From positions 1-56,022 of IMG/VR virus record IMGVR_UViG_2534681672_000003: 56,022 nucleotides of DNA; one strand, written 5' to 3'. Both the position numbers and the translations under genes were made by a program. The notes beneath the pieces are model-generated. The model was not told where the DNA came from. It saw only the letters and a program-made list of their open reading frames with translations, and did not search any database. This DNA comes from a virus. Its lineage: Duplodnaviria; Heunggongvirae; Uroviricota; Caudoviricetes. Below, one piece after another: positions 17,353 through 48,741 of the stretch. Within the stretch, counting starts at the first letter, position 1. Each line of letters opens with the position of its first letter.

Positions 17353-18141
17353 TTACGCCAGTTGTACGGACACGAACTCATCAGGGTCAGCCAGCAGCAT
17401 CAGCGGTGCTGACTGAATCATGGTGAACTCACGCGCCGGATCGCCGGTGGTCACCCAGTTTTTCGGGTAGCGGGCAGAGGCGTTAATGCCTTCGCGCTGT
17501 GCGTCCGCATCCTGAATGCAGCCATAGGTGCGCAGACCGCGTGCCTGAGTGTTCCCCAGCACCATCGTGTTGTCCGGCAGGAAGTTCTTTTTGACGCCGT
17601 TTTCCACGTACTGTCCGGAATACACGACGATGGCCACATCGCCATACATTCCCTTATAGGACACCGCTTTGCCCAGGTCTTTTACCGCTGTCTCCAGCTC
17701 GGAATGAGAGCCGCGACGGGTATCCAGCTTCTCCCTGACGGCTTTGAAAGAACGGAACAGCGCCCAGCCTTTCGGATCAAACACGATGATATTCACCACA
17801 CCGCTGGCGTTCAGCGCGTAGGCTTCGATATCGTCTGTCGGGTCATACGTGGACTTGTCACGCTTGCTCCACTCCGTGCCGCCGGACTGCGTGATGTTAT
17901 TCGCCTCACTGCGGCCCATATCCACCTCAACCGGATCGAAGGCTTCACCGGTCATGGTGTATTTGCCCTTAAGCACGGCAGAAACTGCCTGCATCTCTTC
18001 GACCTGAGCAATGGCCAGCTCTTCGTCACGCATGTTCTGCATGATGATGCGACGGCGGCGGTAAGTCGGGTCCGCCAGATTCTGCGGATCTTCATCCGGC
18101 AGGCGACGCAGGGTCATCTGCGGATTCACCTCATGCTTCGG
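17353..18141 (-). pseudogene. E: major capsid protein E, 3' fragment (codons from ...PKHEVNPQMTLRRLPDED to the stop)
   Basis: Lambda E C-terminal two-thirds; upstream reading frame hits a stop immediately past 18141, where unrelated AT-rich sequence begins. Confidence 0.9.
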
Positions 18142-18143
18142 CT
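18134..18143. repeat. left copy of 10-bp direct repeat TGCTTCGGCT (att core or target duplication)
   Basis: Identical 10-mer at 29567-29576; both copies lie in E codons K-P-K. Confidence 0.75.
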
Positions 18144-18220
18144 ACATGAGTCAAATATGAAAGGATGTGAATGATTTGATTACGTTTTAGCTATAGAATT
18201 GAAATGGAAAATCCTTGAAT

Positions 18221-18240
18221 GCAATACAACGTGCAATACA
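18221..18240. promoter_or_regulatory. candidate integrase arm-type site GCAATACAA-CGT-GCAATACA (left arm)
   Basis: Same motif in the same orientation at 29419-29438 near the other junction. Confidence 0.5.
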
Positions 18241-18277
18241 TGGATGAAAACCATCACTCATTTAACAAGAGGAATCT

Positions 18278-19183
18278 ATGCGCTCACCCAACAGAATGCA
18301 TGAACGCTCAACATTTTATAAGTATATGTCGTTGAATACCGCGAAGATTGTTCTTGATTCATGCAGCCTTAGATGGAGTTCTCCGGTCCTATTTAATGAC
18401 CCTTTTGATGTTCCAAGAGAAGTTATGCCTGGTATTAACGAAATTAATATTGGCAAAGCTTTAGCCCGCAAGTTAATAGCGGAGTTGATTACCCCCAGAG
18501 AAGACATACAAAATTTAAACCCTAGAATTAGAACAATGCTAAGTGATTTCCAAAAGTCATTTCCTTTAGGCATACCCGCAGGATTAATTGAAAGATTTCA
18601 AGAAATGGTAAACATTCCACCAGTTGGGATTGGCGCTCCTGCGGCAATACAAGAAATGAAAGATGTCTGGCGAGGAATGCTTAATAACAGAAGGATTTTG
18701 TGTTTATCTGAGAGCCCTATAATCACTCCTATGTGGAATCACTATGCCGATAAATATAAAGGTATAGTTATCGAATTTGATTGTGTAGACTTTCTGGATA
18801 GCGCTTGGTTAATAGCCAAACCTATGAAATACACAGATGAAATGCCTCTAACTCACACTGCTGAAGGGATGGCCGAGTTGCTTTTCATGCCAGACAATAA
18901 GTCAATTGAATATATCAATAATGAGATAATATTCATAAAAACAGAAGAATGGGCATATGAAAGAGAGTGGAGAATTTCAACCTACGCTAGGCCAAATAGC
19001 ACTGGTCAATATAGCGACTTAAAATTTCACCCTTTTGAGTTAAAATCTGTAATACTTGGTCCTCTTTTTGATGCCAGCGAGTTCGATGAAGTCGCATCAC
19101 TAGTTAAGATGTATCCAAGAGCGAAATTATTTAAAAGTTCATTTGGGAACGACAGAAAAATATCCATAGTACCACTACCTTAA
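18278..19183 (+). CDS. DUF2971 family protein (AT-rich cargo; candidate anti-phage function)
   Basis: N-terminal YKYMSLNTAKIVLDSCSLRWSSPVLFNDPFD matches the DUF2971 signature as recalled; AAGAGG RBS; low GC. Confidence 0.65.
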   Translation: MRSPNRMHERSTFYKYMSLNTAKIVLDSCSLRWSSPVLFNDPFDVPREVMPGINEINIGKALARKLIAELITPREDIQNLNPRIRTMLSDFQKSFPLGIPAGLIERFQEMVNIPPVGIGAPAAIQEMKDVWRGMLNNRRILCLSESPIITPMWNHYADKYKGIVIEFDCVDFLDSAWLIAKPMKYTDEMPLTHTAEGMAELLFMPDNKSIEYINNEIIFIKTEEWAYEREWRISTYARPNSTGQYSDLKFHPFELKSVILGPLFDASEFDEVASLVKMYPRAKLFKSSFGNDRKISIVPLP

Positions 19184-19223
19184 AAGGTCAAATGCTTTTG
19201 ACAAATAAAATCTATCGCCAGTT

Positions 19224-19240
19224 TTACTGGCGACTTTTAA
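19224..19240. terminator. bidirectional hairpin GCCAGT-TTT-ACTGGC between convergent genes
   Basis: Inverted repeat between the DUF2971 stop and the nu1-like stop. Confidence 0.45.
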
Positions 19241-19289
19241 GCAACAAAGAACCACCTAAGCACTCTTCCTACCTATGGTTTCATTTGTT

Positions 19290-19841
19290 TTAACTTCGCT
19301 GATTATCCTTGATATACCTTTCAGCCATATCTGGAATGTTATCTGAGATCTGGTAAGCTCGAATAAATGCTTTACTGACCTCCATCTTAATGAAGTCCTG
19401 ATACCGTTTTCCCATGCCAGGAAACTGTCGACAGATCGCAAGTGGAAGACTATCAATGATTGCTCCAACTTCCCCAGTTAATTTCGACAAGGCATAAGTC
19501 GCAAATGCAGTGTCAATTACCTCACCTGTTTCGCTGGCATTCTTCAGTTCCTGTGCGTCGGCCTGCGCACGCGTAAGTCGATGGCGTTCATACTCAATAG
19601 TCCCTGGCAGGAGATCTGCCTCGCTGGCCTGCCGCAGTTCTTCAACCTCCCGGCGCAGCTTTTCGTTCTCAATTTCAGCATCCCTTTCGGCATACCATTT
19701 TATGACGGCGGCAGAGTCATAAAGCACCTCATTACCCTTGCCACCGCCTCGCAGAACGGGCATTCCCTGCTCCTGCTAGTTCTGAATGGTACGGATACTC
19801 GCACCGAAAATGTCAGCCAGCTGCTTTTTGTTGGCTTCCAT
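19290..19841 (-). pseudogene. nu1-like small terminase subunit paralogue with in-frame TAG at codon 22 (possible restart at Met27)
   Basis: First two-thirds nearly identical at DNA level to helper nu1 (35283-35828) except TGG to TAG at 19776-19778; C-terminal third diverged. Confidence 0.7.
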
Positions 19842-19859
19842 TGTTCATTCCACGGACAA

Positions 19860-20060
19860 AACCAGAGAAAGGAAACGACAGAGGCCAAAAAGCCTGTTTT
19901 TAGCACCTGTCGTTTCCTTTCTTTTTAGGGGGTGTTTTTAATAAAAACATTAAGTTACGGCGAAGAAGAACGGAAACGCCTTAAACAGGAAAATTTTCAC
20001 AAATAGCGAAAAACTGCGCGCCTGACGCCCCGTAGCCTGTCAGATCGCCGGAAAGGACCC
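19860..20060. other. element cos site (cosB-like R-site sequences plus variant cosN at about 20019-20030)
   Basis: Aligns to helper cos at 35838-36030; flanks conserved, 12-nt overhang positions differ. Confidence 0.65.
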
Positions 20061-20086
20061 GCCAGCCAGAGCGGGCCCTAATTTCA

Positions 20087-20470
20087 TCAACCAATCAGCT
20101 TATAGCGACCATCCCGTGCATTGCGGCGTACACGCTCAATCTTGAGGCATAGCGCCGCATCTGGCTTTTTTGGGACAGGTACGCGGCAATATTCAGAAGC
20201 GCGAGGAATATTATTTATCCAGTCGATCACTTCACTTAAATACCAGGCCTTACGCCCTTCCGTAACCTGCACACGCTCCGGGAACTCTCCACTAGCCTCA
20301 AGGTTTAGCAGTGTACGACGACTCAGGGTTGTAATTTCCATCACCTGATTCATATCAACAAGGCGCTCGCTTAAACACATTTTGTCAGCGATAGCTTTTA
20401 ATTCCTCTACAGCTGGATTCGGGTACATCATTTCGGCAATTGGCTTAAGGTCATTGTAATCATTCTGCAT
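20087..20470 (-). CDS. AlpA/Xis-type HTH DNA-binding protein
   Basis: Motif TTLSRRTLLNLEASGEFPERVQVTEGRKAWYLSEVIDWI; AGGGGG RBS; last gene of the capsid operon, ending about 57 bp from cosN. Confidence 0.6.
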   Translation of the reverse strand: MQNDYNDLKPIAEMMYPNPAVEELKAIADKMCLSERLVDMNQVMEITTLSRRTLLNLEASGEFPERVQVTEGRKAWYLSEVIDWINNIPRASEYCRVPVPKKPDAALCLKIERVRRNARDGRYKLIG

Positions 20471-20481
20471 TGTATCCCCCT

Positions 20482-20823
20482 TTACACACGAGCCAGCGGC
20501 TGAACAGAAATACCTGAGCCAACAAACGCTGCAACCTTTACTGACAGTTCTTTAACAGACTCAGGCCAGTTCAGAGCATCAACATTTAAGACACCTGTCT
20601 TATAGACCTGAGCCTGTGTTTTTTTCGCGGTGTCGATTTGTACAGCGGAAACATAAACCGCTTTACCTACGCTCGAACCATCCCATACCACCAGTGCACC
20701 TGTTGCATCTTCCTGCATCAGTGGCGTAAATGCAGGAATTACCCCTTTATTAGCTGAAAATATCCCCAGCGTAGTCACCAGTGCTTCAGTGCCAGCCATG
20801 AGTTCAGTGTAATGAGTAGCCAT
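20482..20823 (-). CDS. head decoration protein, lambda D-like
   Basis: Alignable by eye to helper D (TPLM, WDG, YK-G, WPE, AF-G-IS shared); AGGGGGAG RBS. Confidence 0.7.
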   Translation of the reverse strand: MATHYTELMAGTEALVTTLGIFSANKGVIPAFTPLMQEDATGALVVWDGSSVGKAVYVSAVQIDTAKKTQAQVYKTGVLNVDALNWPESVKELSVKVAAFVGSGISVQPLARV

Positions 20824-20832
20824 TGCTCCCCC

Positions 20833-21873
20833 TTAGCCAATGCGAACGGTAACAAAACGATTGATGCGGGCCGGTATTGGCTGTGGTGCTGAATGTGTCT
20901 GCACATATTCAATAGCCGGATCACCAGGCACAATATAGTTTTTCGGTGCAAGTTCGGCTTTAGTCAGCCCCATTCGGATTAGCTCCGGATCCTGAATACC
21001 GCCATAGGCGACAATCCCCTGAAGAGCCGTATTGCCAAGCACCATCAAATCAGGATCAAGGAAATGTTTTTCTGTTCCGTCCTCGTCGGTATAACGCCCG
21101 CTGTAAACAACAATCGCAACATCGCCCATATACCCTTTAAAACTCACCGAATCACCAAGGTCTTTAAGGGCCGTTTCCAGTTCGGAATTAGAACCACGAC
21201 GGGTATCCAAAGCCTCTTTTATCGCTCTGAATGAACGGTATTTCTTCCATACATTACCACCCATAATGATGATATTAGTGACGCCCTCACTAAATTCTGC
21301 GTAGCTCTCAATATCATCATTTGGATCAAAAGTTTCTTTATCCTTACCTGACCACTCAGTACCGCCAGACTGAGTGATGATATTTTGTGGTTTTATATTC
21401 CAGTCCAGCTCATAACGTTCAATACCATCGCCCTCAATGATATTTTTCCCCGTTGTGATAGCCTGAACAGCAAGCCATTCAATACGTGCACGAATAGCTT
21501 TAGCCTGATTTACAATCGCCTGTTTAACTTTAATATTACGCGCCCCAAAAGCATTGTATTGCTCAGGTGACACACCAGCAGGGCGCACAGCTAACTTATT
21601 TGGATCAATGCTGCTTTTCGGCTTCATATAACCTGGACGAATTGTTTTTGATTCGTATCCCTCATCTCGTGAAACTTTACTGCCCACCATAGGAGAGCAA
21701 AACGCCGCGATCGGGATATTTGGATCGTCGATCGTATCAAGAATAATGTCTCTCGATTCAAACATTACCGAGCGAGTGAAAAACAAACTGGTAAACAACG
21801 CATTTAATTTTTTTTGTACATCTACAGCATTAACCACCTGTACAAGCTGAGTAGGCGAATATAAATCAACCAT
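20833..21873 (-). CDS. major capsid protein, lambda E-like (HK97 fold)
   Basis: 346 aa, alignable over the full length to helper E (ITQSGGTEWS, ALDTRRGSNSELETA, DVAIVVYSG shared); start trimmed to the ATG after AAGAGG. Confidence 0.8.
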   Translation of the reverse strand: MVDLYSPTQLVQVVNAVDVQKKLNALFTSLFFTRSVMFESRDIILDTIDDPNIPIAAFCSPMVGSKVSRDEGYESKTIRPGYMKPKSSIDPNKLAVRPAGVSPEQYNAFGARNIKVKQAIVNQAKAIRARIEWLAVQAITTGKNIIEGDGIERYELDWNIKPQNIITQSGGTEWSGKDKETFDPNDDIESYAEFSEGVTNIIIMGGNVWKKYRSFRAIKEALDTRRGSNSELETALKDLGDSVSFKGYMGDVAIVVYSGRYTDEDGTEKHFLDPDLMVLGNTALQGIVAYGGIQDPELIRMGLTKAELAPKNYIVPGDPAIEYVQTHSAPQPIPARINRFVTVRIG

Positions 21874-22074
21874 ACGCATCCTCTTTGCATTCATTAAAAA
21901 TAATTGTGGATATATGCTATCACCGATATTTGTCATGCGAACACATGCAACCGAGTGCAATGTTGTATAAAGTTTTGGGGTGACAACTTCAGTGCGGACA
22001 ATTAGTGTTAATATCTTCACTCCCTTTGGTCGGGATTTATGTAGCATGCAGGAAAATTTATTTTTTCCGGCCTT

Positions 22075-22792
22075 TTTGTGCACAGAAAACCCCCAGCTAG
22101 GCTGGGGGTTCCGGAAAGCTTTCAGCTTTGAGCCAGTTATTAAAACCCCTTTTGATTTGTTAAAACACTTTGCGGTCTGGCAACTGCAAGTGTCAAACAA
22201 GAAATCAAAAGGGGGTCCCAATGGGGAACGAAAAGAGCTTAGCGCACACCCGATGGAACTGTAAATATCACATAGTTTTTGCGCCAAAATACCGAAGACA
22301 GGTGTTCTACAGAGAGAAGCGTAGAGCAATAGGCAGTATTTTGAGAAAGCTGTGTGAGTGGAAAAGCGTACGGATTCTGGAAGCTGAATGCTGTGCAGAT
22401 CATATCCATATGCTTGTGGAGATCCCGCCCAAAATGAGCGTATCCGGGTTTATGGGATATCTGAAAGGGAAAAGCAGTCTGATGCTTTACGAGCAGTTTG
22501 GTGATTTGAAATTCAAATACAGGAACAGGGAGTTCTGGTGCAGAGGGTACTACGTCGATACAGTGGGTAAGAACACGGCGAAGATACAGGATTACATAAA
22601 GCACCAGCTTGAAGAGGATAAAATGGGAGAGCAGTTATCGATTCCCTATCCGGGCAGCCCGTTTACGGGCCGTAAGTAACGAAGTTGGATGCAAATGTCA
22701 GATCGTGTGCGCCTGTTAGGGCGCGGCTGGTAAGAGAGCCTTATAGGCGCATTTGAAAAACCTCCGGCTATGCCGGAGGATATTTATTTTAT
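22075..22792 (+). mobile_element. IS200 insertion sequence
   Basis: IS200-type TnpA flanked by terminal hairpins (about 22087-22110 and 22771-22789); boundaries approximate. Confidence 0.8.
22221..22679 (+). CDS. tnpA: IS200 transposase TnpA (Y1/HUH)
   Basis: MGNEKSLAHTRWNCKYHIVFAPKYRRQVFY... matches IS200 TnpA as recalled; trimmed to the ATG at 22221. Confidence 0.92.
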   Translation: MGNEKSLAHTRWNCKYHIVFAPKYRRQVFYREKRRAIGSILRKLCEWKSVRILEAECCADHIHMLVEIPPKMSVSGFMGYLKGKSSLMLYEQFGDLKFKYRNREFWCRGYYVDTVGKNTAKIQDYIKHQLEEDKMGEQLSIPYPGSPFTGRK

Positions 22793-22801
22793 TGGCAATA
22801 T

Positions 22802-23251
22802 TTAAAACGGGATATCATCTCCCCATTGCTCATTATCTCCCACTGGTGGCTGGCTTCCTTGCTGATCTGCCTGTTGTTTTGCTCTGTTCAGTGCGTCAGT
22901 AGCCTGCCCCTGTTGGCCTTTATTGCCGCCCGGTCGCACCGATCGCGCACTGATTACGCTGTCTGCGATAACCTGCCAGCCCTGCCGCGTTTCGCCGTTC
23001 TGTCCAGTCCACTGGCTCATCTGCATGTTACCCGCCACGCTCAGGAGTTCGCCTTTGTGATGCTTTGCCAGCGCGTCGGCTTGTCTGCCAAACGCCAGGA
23101 CAGATAACCACATCGTCGCCTGACCGTCATCCGACTGACTGCAGGGCAGTGATACCGCCATACGCGCCAACGTCATGGGGGTGCCCTTGCTGGTCTGTTT
23201 TGTCTGCGGGTCGTCCACCGACCGCCCGTAAACTGATATTTGCGCCGTCAT
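22802..23251 (-). CDS. SSB-like protein with C-terminal DDIPF tip
   Basis: Ends ...NEQWGDDIPF (SSB acidic-tip motif); glycine/glutamine-rich linker; AT-skewed neighbourhood. Confidence 0.5.
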   Translation of the reverse strand: MTAQISVYGRSVDDPQTKQTSKGTPMTLARMAVSLPCSQSDDGQATMWLSVLAFGRQADALAKHHKGELLSVAGNMQMSQWTGQNGETRQGWQVIADSVISARSVRPGGNKGQQGQATDALNRAKQQADQQGSQPPVGDNEQWGDDIPF

Positions 23252-23493
23252 GCGGCCTGCTCTCCGGACTTAATATTGATTGTTGTCACTTCCTCCGCTT
23301 CAGCAATCTCCCGTTCGGTCAGAGTGGCAAAGTTTGCAGCCGCCGTTGTCATGAATGCGCTAATCAGTTCGGGATGTGCTTTCGCGTATCCTTCCCCGGC
23401 GTTGCGGTCGATGATTTTTATCGACACCCTTAACCAGTGTTCCGTCAAATCAAGGGCGTGCGATTGTGATTTTTTTGTGTGCTTCGCTGTCAT
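23248..23493 (-). CDS. hypothetical protein
   Basis: 81-aa ORF, stop overlapping the SSB-like start. Confidence 0.35.
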   Translation of the reverse strand: MTAKHTKKSQSHALDLTEHWLRVSIKIIDRNAGEGYAKAHPELISAFMTTAAANFATLTEREIAEAEEVTTINIKSGEQAA

Positions 23494-23538
23494 AGGCTTT
23501 ATCTCACAGCAGTAAATTAAAATTTTTGCGTTTTAACC

Positions 23539-23770
23539 CTTCACCTGTTCACCTTTTGATATTTTCTCTTTTAATTCATAATGTTAATGGGTGAACAGTT
23601 TCACAAAAACTATTCACCAACTGTTCACCACTGTTCACCCTTGAAGCTCAATAAACAATCAAAAAGGTGAACAGTGAATAGTTTGGTGAACAGTTCATAA
23701 ATAACTGTTCACCCTATAATATACTGATATAAAAGATATTTATGACAGGGTGAACAGTGGTGAACAGTTA
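23539..23770. repeat. replication-origin iterons, about 9 copies of TGTTCACC / GGTGAACAG in both orientations
   Basis: Octamer recalled as the P4 alpha binding site at ori/crr; lies directly downstream of the primase-helicase gene. Confidence 0.7.
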
Positions 23771-23780
23771 TTCCATAAGT

Positions 23781-25601
23781 TTAATTTTTGCTATCGTCAT
23801 TAGTGACCGATACACATGATGGCATCCAGTCTTCTGATTCCTCCGTCAGGGTCACGTTTGAACGCAAACCGTGCTTCGTTTTCCGTTTCATATACTCCCT
23901 GCCATATTCCGCCATTGCCCCCGGCATATCTTTACCGAAGCGCGTCAGTGTTACAGGTTTACCAAACCCATGTGCCCTCATATAAGCCAGATAGGCATGA
24001 TAGAGATACCTGCGTGGGCTGAATGGCACAATTTCAGCATTACCCACTAACAGGCCATCACACATTACCGATGCCATGAGATAACCGCAGAAGTCCACCA
24101 GCGAATCCCCCTCTCGCTTTATCGCCAGTGCTTCTTCAGATTTCTGCTGCTCATATAACAGGCGTCTGGCTTCGTCCTGATCAGCAAACCTTGTAAGCAG
24201 ATGACGAATCACTACCGCCAGCTCACCTTCTATTTTTTCCGCCAGCATCGAATCGCGTTCGTTCTCCGGTACAACTTCCGAAAAATTGAATATCACCCGA
24301 CGACGTGAGATCCCCCCGCTGCGGTCACTGAATGACATGGCGTTATTGTTAACCGCCAGCACTACTGCCGGAATACGCGTTGAATAGGGGGCTTTGTGTT
24401 TCGGGTCAATTGCCACCTTGTCACCGCCTGTAATGGCCTTAATCCCTGCCCCATCACCAGCGTAGCGGGTCATATCCGGCATGATAATCAGCGAAAAGCC
24501 AACCACTAACGCACGTTCCCTTGCATCTTCCAGCGCCTTCATGCTTGCTGATACTGTATTAGCCTTACCCGCCAGCATGGTGCAAATCTCCGCCATCACA
24601 CTTTTACCACTTCCCCCCGGCCCTGTTACCTCAATGAATAACTGCCAGTCGTACCGGTTCGCCAGCACCATGAATAATGCCGCCAGTACGCGATCTGCCT
24701 TGCGGTCATTCTCAGCCACCGAACGGCGCAACCACTTCCAGAAATTCGGCGCATGTGTTGCCAGCGTTTCCCCCTCTGCTGGTGGGCTGAAAGGTAATTC
24801 ACTGGCAATTAACAACCAGTCGTTTTTGTTATGCTCCCGAAAGTTACCAGTTCTGGTATCAAATACCCCGTTACTGAATCCAATCAGGTTACGGGCTGTA
24901 TTCCCCATTACAGGCAAACTTAACTTCATGGTATCTACCGCCGATTTAATAGCGTTCTGCGAATAGCTGATCTCCGCATCAATGAAAATCTGCGCCATAG
25001 CACGCTGTAACTCTTTATCCTGAACCGGCTCCCATACAACGCCGTTGTAATGATGAACGGTGTCAGAGTCGGCATTGATTGCCAGTTCGCCGCCGTAATG
25101 TGCAAGGAGAACTTCACCGCGCTGGCTGGCCCCCATCTGATTCAACGCCAAAGATGAAGCACGCTCGTCATTTTTGCGCTCAGCCTTCTTCACTGGCAGT
25201 TCAATCACCAGACTTTCCCCATGCTCCGCTTCAGCTTTTAGGCCGACAAGGCGCGGAGTCCAGTCTTCAGGCTCTCGATCAACAAAGCTACGGTAACAAC
25301 GTGCTTCCTTTACGCCTGCAATAGCAAGTAATGTCGCAACCTTCGTCAGACTTTTCTCTGCAATCTTTCCGGCACGATAAACACGCACATAATGACGGCC
25401 TTCATCGATAATTTGCATATCATCCAGGTTTTCCAGTTGTTCCGTACCCAGAATGACTGGTGGTGTATCATCTGCTGCAATATGCTTACCTGCCCATTCA
25501 TTCCATTCTTTTGCATGGCTCCAGGCATCACTGCCAGCAAAAATGATGACTTCCGTCATTTTGTCGCGCGGTTGGTATTTTAAGTTCGGAGCACGTTTCA
25601 T
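23781..25601 (-). CDS. replication initiation primase-helicase (P4 alpha-like, P-loop NTPase)
   Basis: Walker A VTGPGGSGKS; 606 aa; GGAGG RBS; adjacent to the iteron origin. Confidence 0.65.
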   Translation of the reverse strand: MKRAPNLKYQPRDKMTEVIIFAGSDAWSHAKEWNEWAGKHIAADDTPPVILGTEQLENLDDMQIIDEGRHYVRVYRAGKIAEKSLTKVATLLAIAGVKEARCYRSFVDREPEDWTPRLVGLKAEAEHGESLVIELPVKKAERKNDERASSLALNQMGASQRGEVLLAHYGGELAINADSDTVHHYNGVVWEPVQDKELQRAMAQIFIDAEISYSQNAIKSAVDTMKLSLPVMGNTARNLIGFSNGVFDTRTGNFREHNKNDWLLIASELPFSPPAEGETLATHAPNFWKWLRRSVAENDRKADRVLAALFMVLANRYDWQLFIEVTGPGGSGKSVMAEICTMLAGKANTVSASMKALEDARERALVVGFSLIIMPDMTRYAGDGAGIKAITGGDKVAIDPKHKAPYSTRIPAVVLAVNNNAMSFSDRSGGISRRRVIFNFSEVVPENERDSMLAEKIEGELAVVIRHLLTRFADQDEARRLLYEQQKSEEALAIKREGDSLVDFCGYLMASVMCDGLLVGNAEIVPFSPRRYLYHAYLAYMRAHGFGKPVTLTRFGKDMPGAMAEYGREYMKRKTKHGLRSNVTLTEESEDWMPSCVSVTNDDSKN

Positions 25602-25885
25602 TTGTTACCTCCGGCAACTAACATTGCCCGAATTTTACGGATATAGCCTGCGGCACGCCTCTGATTATCTGTCTTGCAATTTTTTACCAGAATGAAATCT
25701 CTTTCGAACTGCTGACGCGGCATAACACATTCAAAATCATAACCATCACGCAAATAAGAGACACGACGATCATCAACCGAAATAATCTTTACCCGATAGC
25801 CATAGCTGTCTTTGAAAATATCCCCAAGGCTGATTTTTGAATGAGTTTGACCGCTGGCAATAAAGCCAGAAAATTTATTTTTCAT
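25598..25885 (-). CDS. hypothetical protein (replication operon)
   Basis: 95-aa ORF with ATGA overlap onto the primase start. Confidence 0.4.
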   Translation of the reverse strand: MKNKFSGFIASGQTHSKISLGDIFKDSYGYRVKIISVDDRRVSYLRDGYDFECVMPRQQFERDFILVKNCKTDNQRRAAGYIRKIRAMLVAGGNK

Positions 25886-25888
25886 TTT

Positions 25889-26113
25889 TTATTCTCCGGT
25901 ATAGCTCTGGTCGTGTATTTTTATAGCTTCATCCAGCTCTTTGATGACAGGATCAAGTAACGTAATTAACGCTCCAGCTAAATTAGCATCCCGTTCATCG
26001 TGTTCCGCATTTGTTGTCCCATCAAGCCAGGTTGATAAGATTTCTCGCATATTTTTGCCACAAACGAGCGCGTTTTCAGCATGTGTCAGCACTTTAAAAT
26101 AAAGATCATTCAT
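25889..26113 (-). CDS. hypothetical protein
   Basis: 74-aa ORF in the same operon. Confidence 0.35.
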   Translation of the reverse strand: MNDLYFKVLTHAENALVCGKNMREILSTWLDGTTNAEHDERDANLAGALITLLDPVIKELDEAIKIHDQSYTGE

Positions 26114-26471
26114 GGCACACCTCCTGACGAATACGGGCGGCGAATATCATCACGTAGCCAGTTGGGAATTGCTGGCGGGCTTCCTGTTCGCTGGCGGCCT
26201 CGATGTGTATTACGCGTGGTTGTGCGGTGCTCAGGGCGATAAAACGCCAGATGAAATTGTTTTCGCATTTCTGAATAAACAGCGTGTTTTCTTCACGCCC
26301 TTTCCAGAAAGCCGCAGTATAGCCCATCTCCTTAACCATCTTGCGGGCATCAACCAGCGTGTCAGCGGCAACATGTACCGTAGTTGCTCCATCTGCCATG
26401 CGGTCGTGGTGTAGTGCCAGAAAGGTGTATATAAATTTAGGGTGAGTTTGGGTATGCTGTGTTCCAGCCAT
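26106..26471 (-). CDS. hypothetical protein, first gene of the leftward operon
   Basis: 121 aa from the ATG after a GAGG RBS; the longer ORF-track version runs antisense through the neighbouring gene and was trimmed. Confidence 0.45.
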   Translation of the reverse strand: MAGTQHTQTHPKFIYTFLALHHDRMADGATTVHVAADTLVDARKMVKEMGYTAAFWKGREENTLFIQKCENNFIWRFIALSTAQPRVIHIEAASEQEARQQFPTGYVMIFAARIRQEVCHE

Positions 26472-26554
26472 AATCGTTACCTCGTTTAACGGTTTGGTTA
26501 GAAGCCCGGTTAGTGTTCGCGCACTGCCGGGTTTCGTCGTTTTTATGAATCGAT

Positions 26555-26670
26555 CATTGTGAGATACATAGCGACCATGATGTGAGATATACATTATAAT
26601 GTGGTGATATACATTGCAAGTGTTTTTATATCTCACTTTTGTGTATAGTGATATACACATAACAAATTGG
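26555..26670. promoter_or_regulatory. divergent promoter/operator region with repeated GTGAGATA(T)ACAT and GTGATATACA motifs
   Basis: At least five direct and inverted copies between the divergent operons. Confidence 0.6.
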
Positions 26671-26679
26671 TGATTAACT

Positions 26680-26982
26680 ATGTCTGTATACAAAAATGCA
26701 AAATCGCAAATGACAACGATCAGGGTTCCCCACGATGTTATGGAGGGCATGGAATCCGTAAAACTGGACGGCGAAAGCAACGCCGGATTCATAGTAACCG
26801 CCATGCGCGGTGAGATCGCCCGCCGCCAGGCAGAAGGAAGCGGAGAAAATCCCCTCGTGTCTTCACTGGATGCCTTAGCTAAGGTCGAACAAATCGGCAT
26901 CAAGGCAGCGGAGGAAATCGGGCAACTCGTAGCCGTCGCTCGTGAAGAACTCCAGCGGCGTAAAGCCAAAGAATCTGAATAA
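26680..26982 (+). CDS. putative ribbon-helix-helix (CopG/Arc-like) regulator
   Basis: TTIRVPHDVMEGMESVKL...NAGFIVTAMRGEI fits a strand-helix-helix pattern; sits beside the operator repeats. Confidence 0.4.
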   Translation: MSVYKNAKSQMTTIRVPHDVMEGMESVKLDGESNAGFIVTAMRGEIARRQAEGSGENPLVSSLDALAKVEQIGIKAAEEIGQLVAVAREELQRRKAKESE

Positions 26983-27332
26983 TTACTATCAGCGCCGTGA
27001 TGTGAGTAACTACGGCGCATTGCTATGTAAATACTGGCAATAAACAGAAAAGGTAGTTCTACTCCGAATAATTTTATCTGACACTACTCCTGAACTAACA
27101 TGCGCTTATCTTACAGGATATAAATATAGATCCATAAAATCACGATTAAATAAAGCCGCTCCAAACATAAACCACACCCAACGCTTAACAAGATAGCAAC
27201 AAACAGATAAATAACTTGCAGAAATATTTATCGCAAGGATTATCATTATTAATTACAAATCACTTTACCAAGTCATTCCCCTCTCTTATCATAAAGAGAA
27301 AGTAATAAATAAGTTAAGGGAGTTAGAATACT

Positions 27333-27869
27333 ATGAATCTAAAAAAAATAGCCACAAACATAAAAAACAAGATAATAGAAACATTCAATAAACTTATATT
27401 AGAGGCATCTAAAACCCCCACACAAGATGAAATTAAAATACTTGAGAGAAGAAGTAAAAAGTTTAATTACTCCTTTTTCTCATACGCAGTCACAGGAGCC
27501 ATAATGGTTTTTTGCTCTCAACCATTAATAAAATACGCAAACCCAATGCTTATTTTATTGAGTGGTCTGTTACTGTCTATCATCATTATCCTTCTCAGAA
27601 TGATTTATATTTCACAAGCGAATGCATCATGGACAACCAAAAAACGTTCACATGTACTAGTTCATTTTCTTTCTGCATGTTTCATAGCGTCAACATTGAC
27701 GTTGTTATATCAGGCTTACGATAATAACATCACACACAAATTGTACTGTAAAAATATACAACAACTTATTGAAAAAAGGATAGAAACAGAAAAAAATATC
27801 AGCATATTCAGTGGGATGCAATGCACCCCGGCATATGATTACTCTTTATTTGGATTTAATCTCTTATAA
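27333..27869 (+). CDS. AT-rich membrane protein (cargo, unknown function)
   Basis: 178 aa, hydrophobic segments, very low GC, preceded by about 300 bp of AT-rich DNA. Confidence 0.5.
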   Translation: MNLKKIATNIKNKIIETFNKLILEASKTPTQDEIKILERRSKKFNYSFFSYAVTGAIMVFCSQPLIKYANPMLILLSGLLLSIIIILLRMIYISQANASWTTKKRSHVLVHFLSACFIASTLTLLYQAYDNNITHKLYCKNIQQLIEKRIETEKNISIFSGMQCTPAYDYSLFGFNLL

Positions 27870-27938
27870 AGAATGTTATTACTGATTTGAGTGCAAATTC
27901 TCAAATCAGTAATTCATAATATTTTATTCTGAGATAAT

Positions 27939-28166
27939 TTAAACTACCCACTCACCTCGAATCCATGCCTGCACTTCTGAAAGACGATATGCAACAGCAG
28001 TGGAGCCAATCTTGATCCGCTTAGGAAATTTCCCTTCCTTCTCCAGCTTCCAGCGTGTGCTGTTCGCAAGAGTGGTTAGCTCCCGACATTCTTTCTCACG
28101 GATCATACGATCGATGTTAGGAATGTACTCCAAACCCTTTTTATCAACAATCGCCATTTTTTTCAT
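27939..28166 (-). CDS. alpA: AlpA-family transcriptional regulator/excisionase
   Basis: 75 aa with AlpA-type HTH (LTTLANSTRWKLEKEGKFPKRIKIG); directly downstream of int. Confidence 0.75.
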   Translation of the reverse strand: MKKMAIVDKKGLEYIPNIDRMIREKECRELTTLANSTRWKLEKEGKFPKRIKIGSTAVAYRLSEVQAWIRGEWVV

Positions 28167-28167
28167 G

Positions 28168-29403
28168 TTAACCAGCCTTTTGTTTGAGGATTATCACTTT
28201 TGAATCAGCACCTGCGATGCTATTGAGATATGTAGTCCAGAGTTCCAGAGCATCCAGTTTTTTAGCCATAAACTTACTCCGGTTGTAAACACCTGCCACG
28301 CCAGGTAGCGCATGGCCTAACAGTTGTTCTACTACATAAAATTCAACACCGAGATCACTTAGATGAGTAGATAGCGTTCTTCTAAGGTCGTGTAGTGACC
28401 ATTGTTTTTCATGGCCCAAACGTTTACCGATTTTCCCCCCAATCTTGCTTACGCTTTCTCTAATTCGCAGACTTCCCAGCACATAACCAGTATGTTTTGT
28501 CTCTTCGTGAACATCCGTTACCCACTGTCGTAGAATTTCAGGTACTGGTCTGACGATTTCAACACCAGTTTTTGAGTGATCTTTTGGTACCGTCCAAACC
28601 CAACTTTCGAGATCCCATTCGCTCCATTCAGATAATCGGGCTTCACTCATTCGACATCCAAATACTGTACAAAGCACAAACATTTTTCGCGTGTATTCAG
28701 ACATTAGTTTTAAATCAGGCTCGACAAAAATTGCCTTCCAGAGCTGGCCCAGTTCGGCTTCATCCAGAACCCGATCCCGCTTACCTGCAATCTGCCCCAC
28801 ATCACTCATGCGCAAATCCTTTAAAGCATCACATGTCGCGTACTGGCGTACCCGACAAAAACGAAGAGCTAATTTAGTGTCAGAAAAAACATACGCCGCC
28901 ATAACTGGTGCATTACGTTTAATTCGGTCAAAACAGTCCAGCCATTCATATAGGTGAGTGTCATTTACAGGCAAATGACCGATATAGGGAAAGATATGCT
29001 TTCGAAATCTGCCAAGCGTTACAGCATGAGTTTTACGACGCACCTTACAGTAATTTTCATACCAGTAATTTAGTGCATCCTCCACTGTGACCGGCTTTAA
29101 GCGTTCTTCAGCCTGAATCTTAATCTGGATACGCGGATCACGTTTGTCAGCCAACCAACCACGGCACTCGTCGCGCTTTTCCCTTGCCTGTTTGAGTGAC
29201 ATATCAGGATATTTACCCAACGTTAGCCAGACCGGAGCAGCCCGGCCACCTGCTAACCTGTAGAAGAAAACAAAGCTCACAGCCCCCTTGGTACTCACAC
29301 GAATAGAAAGCCCCTTTCCATCAGCAATGGTGATCTGCTTTTCTCTGGGTTTCCCCAGATATCCTTTAAGCGCTTTGTCGCTCAGTTTGTTCTCGCCAGC
29401 CAT
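28168..29403 (-). CDS. int: tyrosine integrase, P4/CP4-57 family with N-terminal arm-binding domain
   Basis: N-terminus LSDKALKGYLGKPREKQITIADGKGLSIRVSTKG; C-terminal HDLRRT...LLGH...Y catalytic motifs; trimmed to the ATG at 29403. Confidence 0.85.
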   Translation of the reverse strand: MAGENKLSDKALKGYLGKPREKQITIADGKGLSIRVSTKGAVSFVFFYRLAGGRAAPVWLTLGKYPDMSLKQAREKRDECRGWLADKRDPRIQIKIQAEERLKPVTVEDALNYWYENYCKVRRKTHAVTLGRFRKHIFPYIGHLPVNDTHLYEWLDCFDRIKRNAPVMAAYVFSDTKLALRFCRVRQYATCDALKDLRMSDVGQIAGKRDRVLDEAELGQLWKAIFVEPDLKLMSEYTRKMFVLCTVFGCRMSEARLSEWSEWDLESWVWTVPKDHSKTGVEIVRPVPEILRQWVTDVHEETKHTGYVLGSLRIRESVSKIGGKIGKRLGHEKQWSLHDLRRTLSTHLSDLGVEFYVVEQLLGHALPGVAGVYNRSKFMAKKLDALELWTTYLNSIAGADSKVIILKQKAG

Positions 29404-29418
29404 TTTTAGCCCCAAAAA

Positions 29419-29438
29419 GCAATACAAGCTGCAATACA
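29419..29438. promoter_or_regulatory. candidate integrase arm-type site GCAATACAA-GCT-GCAATACA (right arm)
   Basis: Matches the left-arm motif at 18221-18240. Confidence 0.5.
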
Positions 29439-29566
29439 GAGATGATTGCAACACACAGATAACGAGGAAAATTCAGTGAAAGCGCCAGATAAACTTATTC
29501 TTTATTATCAAAAGATTAAGTGTAAAAACCAGCAACTACACGAAAGCCTCAGAAAGCCATGCTAAG

Positions 29567-29576
29567 TGCTTCGGCT
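29567..29576. repeat. right copy of 10-bp direct repeat TGCTTCGGCT
   Basis: Identical to 18134-18143. Confidence 0.75.
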
Positions 29577-29811
29577 TGACATATCCCGGCGTAAATTCAG
29601 AGGTGGAGCCGCCACGGGAACGGATAACCTCACCGGAAACAATCGGCGAAACGTACAGCGCCATGTTTACAAGTCCCGGAATTTGTGAGAGATAGACTTT
29701 CTCCGTAGTGAAGGGATAGCTCTCACGGAAAAAGAGACGCAGAAACAGCGGATCAAACTTAAATTTCTGCTCATTTGCCGCCAGCAGCTGGGCGGTTGTG
29801 TACATCGACAT
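29567..29811 (-). pseudogene. E: major capsid protein E, 5' fragment (MSMYTTAQLL...GYVKPKH)
   Basis: Lambda E N-terminus; frame leaves E sequence right after KPKH at the junction. Confidence 0.9.
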
Positions 29812-29866
29812 AAAAAAATCCCGTAAAAAAAGCCGCACAGGCGGCCTTTAGTGATGAAGGGTCAGG

Positions 29867-47729: not shown

Positions 47730-48655
47730 AGCTCCACCCCGTAAATCCAGTCAGTGTTCGTCAGGTCGAGTTTTGGTTTGCTGGCTATCACGCCTGCCTG
47801 TTGCTTGTTACGGTTGATTTCGAGTTGGGTCCACTTATCGCGGAGTTTGGCCGGGCTCAGCACGTTACCGGACCAGAAGTTGTCCTGGCATGCCCAGCGG
47901 AACAGCACGCACATGTCGCGGTGGTTACGTCCGTCACGTTCACGCATCAGGCGGATATCGTTAGCCCACCCAGCAAAATTCGGTTTTCTGGCTGATGGTG
48001 CGATAGTCTTCACCATGTCAAACATCCACTCTGCGGCGGTCAGGTCTTCTGCTGTCCCCCACTTGCTGCCGCTCTGAATTGCAGCATCCGGTTTCACCAC
48101 AGGAAGATCGTTTTCTGGCTGGTCAGAGGATTCGCCAGAATTCTCGGACGAAAAAGGTTTTATATTGTCTTTTGTTAGTTTGTCTTTTGTGTTTACCTGA
48201 TTCGGGTAAACGCCTTTACCTGATTTGGGTAAACTTTTCTTACCTGATTCAGGTAAATTTACCTCTTTCAGGTAAACTTTATTTTTCTTACCTGATTCGG
48301 GTAATGTTGACCATTCACTGACCACATTATTAATGCCGATATTCCGCCCGCTCTGAATAAGAATCCCACGCTTTACCAGAACGCTTTTTGCAGCAGAACA
48401 CTTGTGCGGCAATATCCCGGTCAATTCGGAAAGTTGCTCGTTGCTCACCCAATCCAGTCTTTTATTAAAGCCATATGTTTTGCGCATGACAGCCAGAAAG
48501 ACCAGAAGCTGGTGCTGTGTTAATCCGGTCAGCATCACAGCTTCCAGCAACTCATTTGCAATGCGCGTATAACCATCATCGAGATCTGCCACGCGCGGCT
48601 CCTTTTGTGCCGCATCCGGCACTGGAAAATTGAATATCTCAGCAGTGTTTGCCAT
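47726..48655 (-). CDS. O: replication initiator O (lambda-type fold with its own N-terminal iteron-binding specificity)
   Basis: Homology to lambda O begins at MANTAEIFNF after a GGGAGG RBS; the ORF track offers a longer version from 48745. Confidence 0.8.
   Translation of the reverse strand: MANTAEIFNFPVPDAAQKEPRVADLDDGYTRIANELLEAVMLTGLTQHQLLVFLAVMRKTYGFNKRLDWVSNEQLSELTGILPHKCSAAKSVLVKRGILIQSGRNIGINNVVSEWSTLPESGKKNKVYLKEVNLPESGKKSLPKSGKGVYPNQVNTKDKLTKDNIKPFSSENSGESSDQPENDLPVVKPDAAIQSGSKWGTAEDLTAAEWMFDMVKTIAPSARKPNFAGWANDIRLMRERDGRNHRDMCVLFRWACQDNFWSGNVLSPAKLRDKWTQLEINRNKQQAGVIASKPKLDLTNTDWIYGVEL
48192..48305. repeat. ori iterons inside O: 5 copies of about 19 bp TTACCTGAttCgGGTAAAC (each an inverted repeat), with AT-rich tract at 48140-48190
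   Basis: Regular spacing; architecture parallels lambda ori within O. Confidence 0.75.
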
Positions 48656-48741
48656 AATTCCTCCCGCAATGAGTGTGTTACGATTTGCACCTGAAAGTCG
48701 GTTCTGTTCCAGCAGACCGGCTTTCGCCATTTCTGAACCTG

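Follow-up and report, generated by a model that had tools for sequence, protein, structure and literature searches.

A candidate control region of a helper-embedded PICI, with a ribbon-helix-helix regulator, predicted operators and a putative antisense RNA

The window, by which we mean the whole stretch of 56,022 nucleotides analysed here, carries a satellite element in which a short gap separates a leftward replication operon from a rightward gene for a 100-aa protein. The 1-kb stretch that was searched, 26100-27100, is 100% identical to the chromosome of E. coli SCU-102, where, according to the RefSeq annotation, an insert of ~11 kb divides the major capsid gene of a lambdoid prophage into two pseudogene halves. 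The genes and features around the gap are the following.

28168-29454, minus strand: int.
27939-28166, minus strand: alpA-like gene, 75 aa, following int and transcribed towards the control region (PHROG 2790, excisionase/regulator).
27333-27869, plus strand: orphan gene, 178 aa.
26680-26982, plus strand: gene for the 100-aa regulator, a YlcI/YnfO family protein in RefSeq, with the Shine-Dalgarno sequence GGTGA at 26669-26673.
26106-26471, minus strand: Icd-like gene, 121 aa, the first leftward gene, its start codon being the complement of 26469-26471.
After the Icd-like gene, minus strand: remainder of the leftward operon, encoding a 74-aa protein, a DUF4222 protein, a D5-type primase (23781-25601), an 81-aa protein and SSB.
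23546-23766, no strand: replication origin, with nine exact iterons, TGTTCACC, that immediately follow the primase gene.
Beyond SSB: IS200, then the element's own capsid and decoration genes, a second AlpA-like gene and a disrupted small-terminase gene.

The flanks are thus as the sequence-only reading had described them, with a leftward replication operon beginning at 26471 and a rightward 100-aa ORF at 26680-26982. The 121-aa protein matches NCBIfam NF033153 at 77.8 bits (cutoff 25), its Icd-like domain is C-terminal, and RefSeq makes the same assignment; the operon genes downstream of it have overlapping stop and start codons. A longer minus-strand ORF of 304 aa (26106-27020) was rejected as a gene, because relatives differ across the gap by indels whose lengths are no multiple of three, and because the gene annotated in RefSeq is the 121-aa one.

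With int, alpA, a primase gene and adjacent origin, captured late genes, and a position within and co-oriented with the helper capsid gene, the element has the features of a helper-embedded Gram-negative PICI (E:Phage_cap_E_80). It is a known PICI of the 11capE type, alike in gene set and insertion site, and its embedding was already known: 11capE is ~11 kb long, carries int, alpA, primase, SSB and its own capsid and decoration genes, and sits at about codon 80 of a lambda-E-like capsid gene (PMC10111431). The paper on 11capE (Tommasini, Mageeney and Williams 2023) described integration, induction timing and gene zones, and the words ribbon, operator, antisense, SymR and DUF3950 are all absent from its text (PMC10111431). 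The TGTTCACC iterons number 13 in the window against 1.9 expected, nine of them at 23546-23766, and this array, placed directly after the primase gene where PICI origins have been mapped (PMC6092414), is the origin and is separate from the repeats of the control region.

Relatives of the 100-aa protein, gathered from species genomes, metagenomes and IMG/VR, gave a comparison set of 164 loci from more than 15 genera, with 69 distinct combinations of operator region and protein N-terminus. Among the loci inspected the gap measures ~195-215 nt, and every one of them has the same layout: the start of the leftward gene, two hairpins and a T-run, the repeats, and the Shine-Dalgarno sequence and ATG of the regulator. 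The gap most likely holds both binding sites for the regulator and an antisense RNA, and we take the RNA, which lies nearest the leftward operon, before the sites. Its parts are as follows.

26430-26435, plus strand: weak -35 (TATAAA) of the putative RNA promoter.
26453-26458, plus strand: putative -10 (TATGCT) of that promoter, inside codons 5-6 of the Icd-like gene.
26466-26545, plus strand: candidate cis-antisense RNA of ~80 nt, structured, over the first 75 bp of the interval.
26475-26491, plus strand: hairpin 1, with the anti-Shine-Dalgarno sequence CCUC in its loop.
26495-26502, plus strand: invariant linker UGGUUAGA.
26504-26532 and 26532-26544, plus strand: hairpin 2 and T-run, together an intrinsic terminator.

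The predicted RNA begins 3 nt within the start codon of the Icd-like gene, covers the Shine-Dalgarno sequence of that gene, and is fully complementary to the RBS, start codon and leader of the Icd-like mRNA. Structure and strand are both clear in silico. RNAalifold on 23 diverse sequences returned the two hairpins with 21 pairs, 10 of them compensatory, and a covariance model of our own built from those sequences (R1) scores the window at 84.3 bits on the plus strand and 15 bits on the minus strand, and finds 98 of 100 related loci at the same place and on the same strand. Over 52 distinct sequences 97.9% of cells pair and 12 of the 21 pairs show double (compensatory) changes, a level of covariation reached by none of 500 shuffles and not approached by slid controls either. 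About 15% of paired cells are G-U on the plus strand (tally from the per-pair table), which favours that strand because such pairs would be A-C mismatches on the other. The plus strand also folds at -33.8 kcal/mol (z -5.4) as against -19.3 (z -1.7) for the minus strand, and it alone has a T-run after hairpin 2. A TAnnnT element precedes hairpin 1 by 15-16 nt, also in loci whose leftward gene has its start codon displaced by 6 nt. The geometry and strand of the structure fit a cis-antisense RNA to the 5' end of its target with a promoter inside the target coding sequence, and we suggest that an RNA of ~80 nt would be expressed from such a promoter within the Icd-like gene. In the relatives its predicted targets are various first genes of 43-204 aa.

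The only Rfam match in the interval is to symR (RF01809), at 26466-26538 on the plus strand, with 35.3 bits and E 1.4e-4, which is below the gathering score of 61; the homologous place in locus L002 gives 38.7 bits, also below 61. SymR itself has its promoter inside symE and lies with the same geometry over the symE start (PMC1891008). The target here is an Icd-like protein and not the AbrB-fold toxin SymE, and we regard the RNA as an uncurated family related to SymR. Immunity RNAs of the P4/P1 type were ruled out, Rfam C4 and isrK having no match at E <= 0.1 in 19000-29700. The antisense RNA over the left 75 bp is absent from the sequence-only reading.

One alternative would grant the regulator and its operators and see in the hairpins merely a structured 5' leader of the leftward mRNA, serving for example processing or stability, with no separate RNA at all. 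The poor -35 of the RNA promoter and a symR score of 35 bits where 61 is the gathering score both speak for it. Against it stand the G-U pairs, which would be A-C on the mRNA strand, the difference between the strands in folding (z -5.4 against -1.7) and in model score (84 against 15 bits), the T-run on the plus strand only, and the fixed distance of TAnnnT from hairpin 1 despite the 6-nt shift of the start codon. We therefore think a mere leader unlikely, albeit the least unlikely of the alternatives weighed here, and keep to the reading of an antisense RNA.

The rest of the gap is occupied by the repeats. Five copies of GTG-N5/7-CAY, direct and inverted as had been claimed, lie within ~100 bp at 26559-26660.

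26559-26569, plus strand: operator A, GTGAGATACAT, candidate site in the transcribed leader of the leftward operon.
26582-26594, plus strand: operator B, GTGAGATATACAT, candidate site covering the -10 and predicted start point of the leftward promoter.
26604-26614, plus strand: operator C, GTGATATACAT, candidate site in the spacer of the leftward promoter, abutting its -35.
26627-26636, minus strand: operator D, inverted copy, candidate site, reading TATATCTCAC on the plus and GTGAGATATA on the minus strand.
26648-26660, plus strand: operator E, GTGATATACACAT, candidate site overlapping the rightward -10 and start point.
26992-27019, plus strand: hairpin GCGCCGT-N13-ACGGCGC just past the regulator stop codon, whose loop holds a degenerate copy of the motif, GTGAGTAACTA.

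Centre-to-centre distances from A to E are 23, 22, 25 and 19 bp, or about two helical turns. The exact core GTGAKATA occurs nine times in the 56-kb window against 2.47 +/- 1.6 in shuffles, none of 100 shuffles reaching nine, and five of the nine fall within a span of 97 bp in the control gap. A loose 13-mer allowing 3 mismatches shows no enrichment over the window (24 against 20.8), so the signal is a local cluster. Loci of the window's specificity class keep a mean of 4.8 exact cores (12 distinct sequences from 36 loci). Operator A is an extra copy inside an insertion of ~20 bp peculiar to that class, operator D has a promoter on either side of it and covers about -29 to -20 of the rightward one, and operator E lies inside a palindrome, TGTGTATAgtgaTATACACA, at 26640-26659. 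The hairpin at 26992-27019 may mark the end of the regulator transcript.

The repeats, whose conservation in related elements the sequence-only reading had made a test of its proposal, keep their positions in the 164 loci, and it is their sequence that varies, changing with the beta-strand of the regulator as set out below. In the relatives the order is S1, then ~12-15 nt, S2 abutting GTCAA(G), a T-rich stretch with a weaker S3, the block tgtgTATAnTg and immediately S4; the counterparts in the window are B for S1, whose position B shares in all related loci, C for S2, D for S3 and E for S4. Orientation varies by class: the window and EcCICFT073 have S1 and S2 as direct copies, the GTGTTTC class has them inverted. 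S1 lies on the -10 and start point of the leftward promoter and S2 in its spacer, and S3 and S4 bracket the -10 of the rightward promoter.

26614-26619, minus strand: leftward promoter -35, TTGCAA, palindromic; TTGAC(G/A), that is GTCAA on the plus strand, in relatives.
26591-26596, minus strand: leftward promoter -10, TAATGT, homologous to TAACAT in L045 and L002.
26644-26649, plus strand: rightward promoter -10, TATAGT; TATAAT, TATACT or TATATT in relatives.

A sigma-70 scan of the window's own gap found no promoter. In L045 and L002, at the homologous place, the scanner reports TTGACG-17-TAACAT on the leftward strand; the window has TTGCAA-17-TAATGT there, with 7 of 12 consensus matches too weak for the scanner. 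The -35 column is conserved in an alignment of 19 loci. An alternative leftward -10, TATAAT at 26593-26598 on the minus strand, would give a spacer of 15 nt. The rightward promoter, which lacks a recognisable -35, is predicted at tgtgTATAnTg, a block conserved in all loci.

The 100-aa protein has a ribbon-helix-helix (RHH) fold, not a helix-turn-helix, and in this the earlier suggestion that its N-terminus fits such a pattern is borne out, with an R-V-P strand, a G-E-S turn and a strand-helix-helix fold.

Regulator, by residue: N-arm and beta-strand, K8-SQMTTIRVP-17; helix A, 18-27; turn G31-E-S; helix B, 34-52; C-terminal helix, 58-99.

Strand, helix and helix follow one another over ~45 residues, the strand alternates polar and hydrophobic residues and ends in R-h-P (K8-S-Q-M-T-T-I-R-V-P17), and a G-x-S/T/N turn comes after it (G31-E-S33); these hallmarks vary little or not at all among 17-34 homologues, and conservation of the ORF extends across genera. 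The family assignments are firm, NCBIfam NF041551 (YlcI/YnfO) matching residues 8-49 at 70.5 bits (cutoff 30) and PHROG 6522 matching at E 1.7e-61. Sequence profiles of RHH families gave no significant match: Pfam returned no family at default or gathering thresholds, PSK_trans_fac matches 13 of 17 regulator homologues weakly (E 0.001-0.02), a profile search against PDB sequences found no RHH protein, and hhalign against single Arc and Mnt sequences gave a probability below 5%. Foldseek against the PDB returned nothing useful with the full-length monomer model and had to be given the N-domain alone. If the register is that of Arc, the residues facing the DNA would be 11, 13 and 15; the spacing of sites at 22 bp would fit binding on one face of the DNA; and the C-terminal helix, which recalls the tetramerisation domain of Mnt, probably mediates oligomerisation. 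PADLOC has no match for the regulator or the Icd-like protein, and no homologue of the regulator was found in 50,697 deposited phage records. A helper-borne YlcI/YnfO paralogue acting as a subunit-poisoning anti-repressor was considered, and none was found within the window.

The evidence that ties this protein to the repeats is the agreement between operator sequence and the seven residues before R-h-P of the beta-strand, which is one-to-one over 15 signatures, on the understanding that the operators adjoin the 5' end of the RHH gene, that some co-inheritance is expected from linkage alone and that the loci are phylogenetically related. Signatures and cores include the following.

KSQMTTI (the window): operator core GTGAKATA.
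LTTV and LFTV: operator core GTGTTTC.
SLTA: operator core GTGTAAG.
QLNA: operator core GGTATTCA.
MKNI and IKNV: operator core GTGTGCA or GGTGTGTA.
MTTV: operator core GTGTATTTC.
QISI: operator core GTGTGATT.
ALKA (EcCICFT073): operator core GGTGTGGCCCAC.

Proteins with the same residues at positions 11 and 13 have the same motif even when they are otherwise very different, as are the short forms of 61-64 aa from Serratia and Pectobacterium and the forms of 101-103 aa. Natural mosaics are the strongest evidence for the predicted pairing of RHH protein and operator. In L123, codons 22-50 match those of the window at 100% identity, which falls to 78% in codons 1-21 and to 59% in the operators; in L045 the identity is 99% over codons 51-100, 97% downstream and 54% in the operators; the breakpoints fall just after the beta-strand. 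In L047 the first 50 residues differ from those of the window only in the N-terminal arm, M11L and I14V, and the operators are of the GTGTTTC type (GTGTGTTTCAT).

The repeats follow no other candidate in this way. An AlpA 100% identical to that of the window accompanies GTGAKATA at 26 loci and GTGTTTC at 7, and the GTGAKATA type also accompanies AlpAs of 30-50% identity to the window's; the 121-aa Icd-like gene of the window occurs with a different repeat type as well, a single repeat type pairs with at least four different first leftward genes, and the module accompanies three unrelated replication proteins (D5 primase, DUF927 and AAA_25). Because the repeat sequence tracks the beta-strand and not AlpA, the first gene or the type of replication protein, the repeats are best read as predicted operators of the RHH protein, and not as AlpA sites or origin iterons. 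Both AlpA and the Icd-like protein were rejected as the repeat binder on this cross-tabulation. The control switch proposed in the sequence-only reading therefore stands as to a conserved regulatory array over both promoters, a placement of sites with which a switch is in keeping, and falls as to AlpA, which is unlikely to be the cognate binder.

The same observations bear on what the repeats could otherwise be. PICIs need AlpA, their established activator, for excision and replication (PMC6092414, PMC11773190), and the alpA gene is found 1.3 kb further right, oriented towards the region, so one might suppose that AlpA binds the repeats to switch on the leftward operon and that the 100-aa protein is incidental; yet identical AlpAs occur with two repeat types (26 and 7 loci), one repeat type occurs with AlpAs of only 30-50% identity, and the repeats cover the -10, the spacer and the start point, as repressor sites do, instead of lying upstream of the -35, all of which makes the idea improbable. 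A still smaller chance attaches to replication iterons, or a centromere-like site, serving the primase or initiator or a ParG/omega-type RHH partition protein: in the window a separate and much stronger array, with nine exact copies of TGTTCACC, follows the primase gene directly, the control architecture is common to three unrelated replication proteins, a ParA-type gene is absent, and the sites coincide with promoter elements. That the cluster arose by chance in AT-rich intergenic DNA and that the ORF is no regulator at all, as the absence of window-wide enrichment of the loose 13-mer might hint, is hardly credible and already contradicted by the comparative data, given five exact cores within 97 bp where 2.5 are expected in 56 kb, positions conserved in 164 loci with a sequence that co-varies with the protein, and an ORF that has the RHH fold and is conserved across genera.

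We thus return to the RHH operators and the antisense RNA, and consider it fairly probable that the gap is the control hub of a helper-embedded PICI, in which an RHH repressor with its operators and an antisense RNA silence the replication module at rest. Binding by the regulator, the sign of its regulation, expression of the RNA and the route of induction are what we infer in this scheme. In a first layer, the regulator likely binds five dyad-like GTG-N5/7-CAY operators ~22 bp apart, of which B and C would bracket the -10 and spacer of the promoter that drives the operon of Icd-like gene and primase, A would lie in its leader, and D and E would flank the -10 from which the regulator itself is transcribed; with the sites occupied, the replication operon would be repressed and the regulator would control its own synthesis. 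In a second layer, the antisense RNA would be transcribed rightward from within the first Icd-like codons, end at the terminator at 26504-26544, and block translation of the Icd-like gene, which would lower the replication operon via the overlapping downstream genes. Together the two layers would probably keep the replication module silent in the resting state.

Induction would most likely consist of transcription entering from the int/alpA side, either dependent on AlpA or from late transcription of the helper, which would read the replication operon in the sense direction and meet the repressor gene head-on. Such read-through may bypass the operators and collide with transcription of the regulator, and this is the least supported step of the scheme. 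In its orientation the element follows the late transcription of the helper (PMC10111431), an arrangement that suggests read-through from the side of int and alpA; alpA, like the late operon of the helper, is directed through the regulator gene at the replication operon, and overexpression of AlpA alone is enough to trigger excision and replication of EcCICFT073 (PMC6092414), so that any repression by the RHH protein can be bypassed.

EcCICFT073 has the same module in mirror orientation, with a 59-aa YlcI/YnfO gene, a gap of 199 nt and a 66-aa Icd-like gene. The RNA model R1 scores 68 bits there, its own type of operator adjoins GTCAAG and TATACT, and the YlcI/YnfO-homologous gene is likewise followed by a hairpin of the GCGCCGT-N13-ACGGCGC type. 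Both small genes bear late-added locus tags, and were thus probably missing from the annotation used earlier. [quoted passage not shown] The literature searched, with subscription journals outside its scope, yielded no description of the control module, which appears to be previously undescribed in EcCICFT073 too. It is tempting to go further and propose, tentatively and with less confidence than for the control hub itself, that YlcI/YnfO RHH proteins, their co-evolving operators and the SymR-like RNA could make up the resident repressor system long missing in Gram-negative PICIs, also in EcCICFT073, that at least 15 interchangeable, immunity-like classes may set cross-repression, and that AlpA or helper late transcription may override the lock.

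Megablast finds at least part of the stretch that holds the module in 815 out of 5,426 complete genomes of E. coli. One genome carries two elements, both of the same operator class, so the module is not a strict exclusion determinant, and strict heteroimmunity of co-resident elements is unsupported by this one available pair. A repressor with operators in many orthogonal specificities would be useful, as PICIs are being engineered for delivery. The module also gives the functionally uncharacterised YlcI/YnfO N-domain a testable role in DNA binding, and is a source of natural specificity swaps with which to study RHH recognition. It is a concrete and widespread candidate, with defined operators, predicted specificity residues, a partner RNA and an experimentally tractable representative in EcCICFT073.

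A close parallel in design is the immI region of P22, where the RHH repressors Mnt and Arc act at the overlapping divergent promoters Pant and Pmnt together with the antisense RNA sar. Common to both are a small RHH repressor or repressors, operators over back-to-back promoters and an antisense RNA over the 5' end of the first gene, and Mnt, an RHH domain with a C-terminal helical oligomerisation domain, is built like the regulator of the window, in which the RHH domain is likewise followed by a C-terminal helix. The operon of the window differs in being a replication operon that starts with an Icd-like gene and not with an antirepressor gene, and the control region has five operators at a spacing of 22 bp and one regulator rather than two; there is no significant sequence similarity of the regulator to Arc or Mnt (hhalign below 5%). 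Plasmid copy control by an RHH repressor and an antisense RNA, as with CopG and RNAII of pMV158 and, functionally, CopB and CopA of R1, is a second design that the window resembles. CopG, however, is co-transcribed with its target, whereas the regulator here is divergently transcribed, and the element is an integrated satellite and not a plasmid, with a protein of the YlcI/YnfO N-domain family.

Among phage immunity systems, the immI region of P1 and P7 (C4 RNA, icd and ant) and the CI RNA immunity of P4 share with the window, as predicted here, an RNA repressor directed at the RBS of an icd or icd-like first gene whose translation governs the downstream genes, and P4-type TGTTCACC iterons and a primase are a further likeness to P4. 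The difference lies in the RNA, which in the window is cis-antisense and not processed from the same transcript and acting in trans. In SaPIs and Gram-positive PICIs the master repressor Stl (Rpr) is a helix-turn-helix protein relieved by a helper protein; its place in a phage-inducible island, as a divergently transcribed regulator with int on one side and the replication genes on the other, is that of the regulator here, which is RHH and not of the Stl helix-turn-helix type. We know of no anti-repressor for an RHH regulator of the window's type. The documented trigger in Gram-negative PICIs is activation by AlpA (PMC6092414). With SymR the predicted RNA shares a length of 77-80 nt and two hairpins, the similarity amounting to 35-39 bits and E 1e-4 to 1e-3 (PMC1891008), and it differs from SymR in scoring below the gathering score of 61, in a target that is an Icd-like or other small first gene and not the AbrB-fold SymE, and in having no evident LexA control. 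The kind of system is thus a familiar one, and what appear to be new are the protein family, its role in Gram-negative satellites, the interchangeable specificity cassettes and the RNA family.

A single genome or contig can carry more than one copy of the module formed by the ribbon-helix-helix (RHH) regulator gene, its operator array and the antisense RNA. Two or three copies of the same operator class (the repeat-sequence type paired with regulator beta-strand residues) occur in one genome or contig, as at the related loci L167 and L168 of IMG genome 2617271340 and at L007. Because these same-class copies share a genome or contig, co-resident elements need not differ in operator specificity.

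Nature also provides a variant of the antisense RNA. At locus L111 (IMGVR_UViG_3300007747_000070), which has the operator class of the window, a deletion leaves hairpin 1 of the RNA joined directly with the 3' half of hairpin 2, and this locus is among the two unmatched at E <= 0.001 by model R1, our covariance model of the RNA. Separately, the helper prophage contains, at 48643-48737 (+), a weak match (21.5 bits, E 0.005) to the antisense-RNA model; it is probably spurious.

The surroundings of the module in the window comprise the following.

Features of the satellite and its insertion site (window coordinates)
17353-18129 and ~29536-29838: halves of the helper major capsid gene, flanking the satellite
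~18142-29535: satellite element, inside the major capsid gene of the helper prophage
18278-19183 (+): DUF2971 protein gene, at the satellite's far end
22088-22211 (+): Rfam STnc490 match, 144.6 bits, at an IS200C copy
23500-23507 (-): lone additional GTGAGATA, with the start of an 81-aa gene 7 bp downstream
23546-23766: nine exact copies of the iteron TGTTCACC, some direct and some inverted, surrounding AT-rich DNA immediately 3' of the primase gene
26992-27019: hairpin directly 3' of the regulator stop codon
27333-27869 (+): AT-rich 178-aa ORF with hydrophobic segments, between regulator and alpA

The iteron array is likely to be the origin of the satellite, and its 8-mer is that of the P4 alpha-protein iterons. 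Between this origin and the SSB operon lies the lone GTGAGATA, which may be a chance occurrence or a sixth operator. A degenerate motif copy, CCGTGATGTGAGTAACTA, also lies in the loop of the hairpin behind the regulator gene (compare CCATGATGTGAGATATACA at site B). In several related elements (L008-L011, L019 and L104), a DnaA-box-like TGTGGATAA (or TGTGGATAG) sits in the stretch from the RNA terminator to the first operator, where the window instead has operator A.

Among PADLOC families, the DUF2971 protein hits PDC-S31, a candidate defence family (E 2.5e-32). No family was found for the 178-aa ORF in NCBIfam, PHROGs or PADLOC. Since related elements carry varying small genes in the same slot, it may be a cargo position. 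The STnc490 match coincides with the IS200C copy, annotated by RefSeq between the SSB and capsid genes.

Lodged in the split helper capsid gene, the satellite has capsid and decoration genes of its own. Its placement is not new, as this helper-embedded PICI configuration has been published (PMC10111431).

In EcCICFT073, the model Gram-negative PICI, the two small genes bear locus tags added late in RefSeq (C_RS30120 and C_RS30125), which suggests that both were absent from the annotation behind earlier experimental work. EcCICFT073 (L186, NC_004431.1 1380473-1381052) has the same module, with the RHH gene, an array of operators and the antisense RNA, and the same hairpin lies 3' of its homologous regulator gene.
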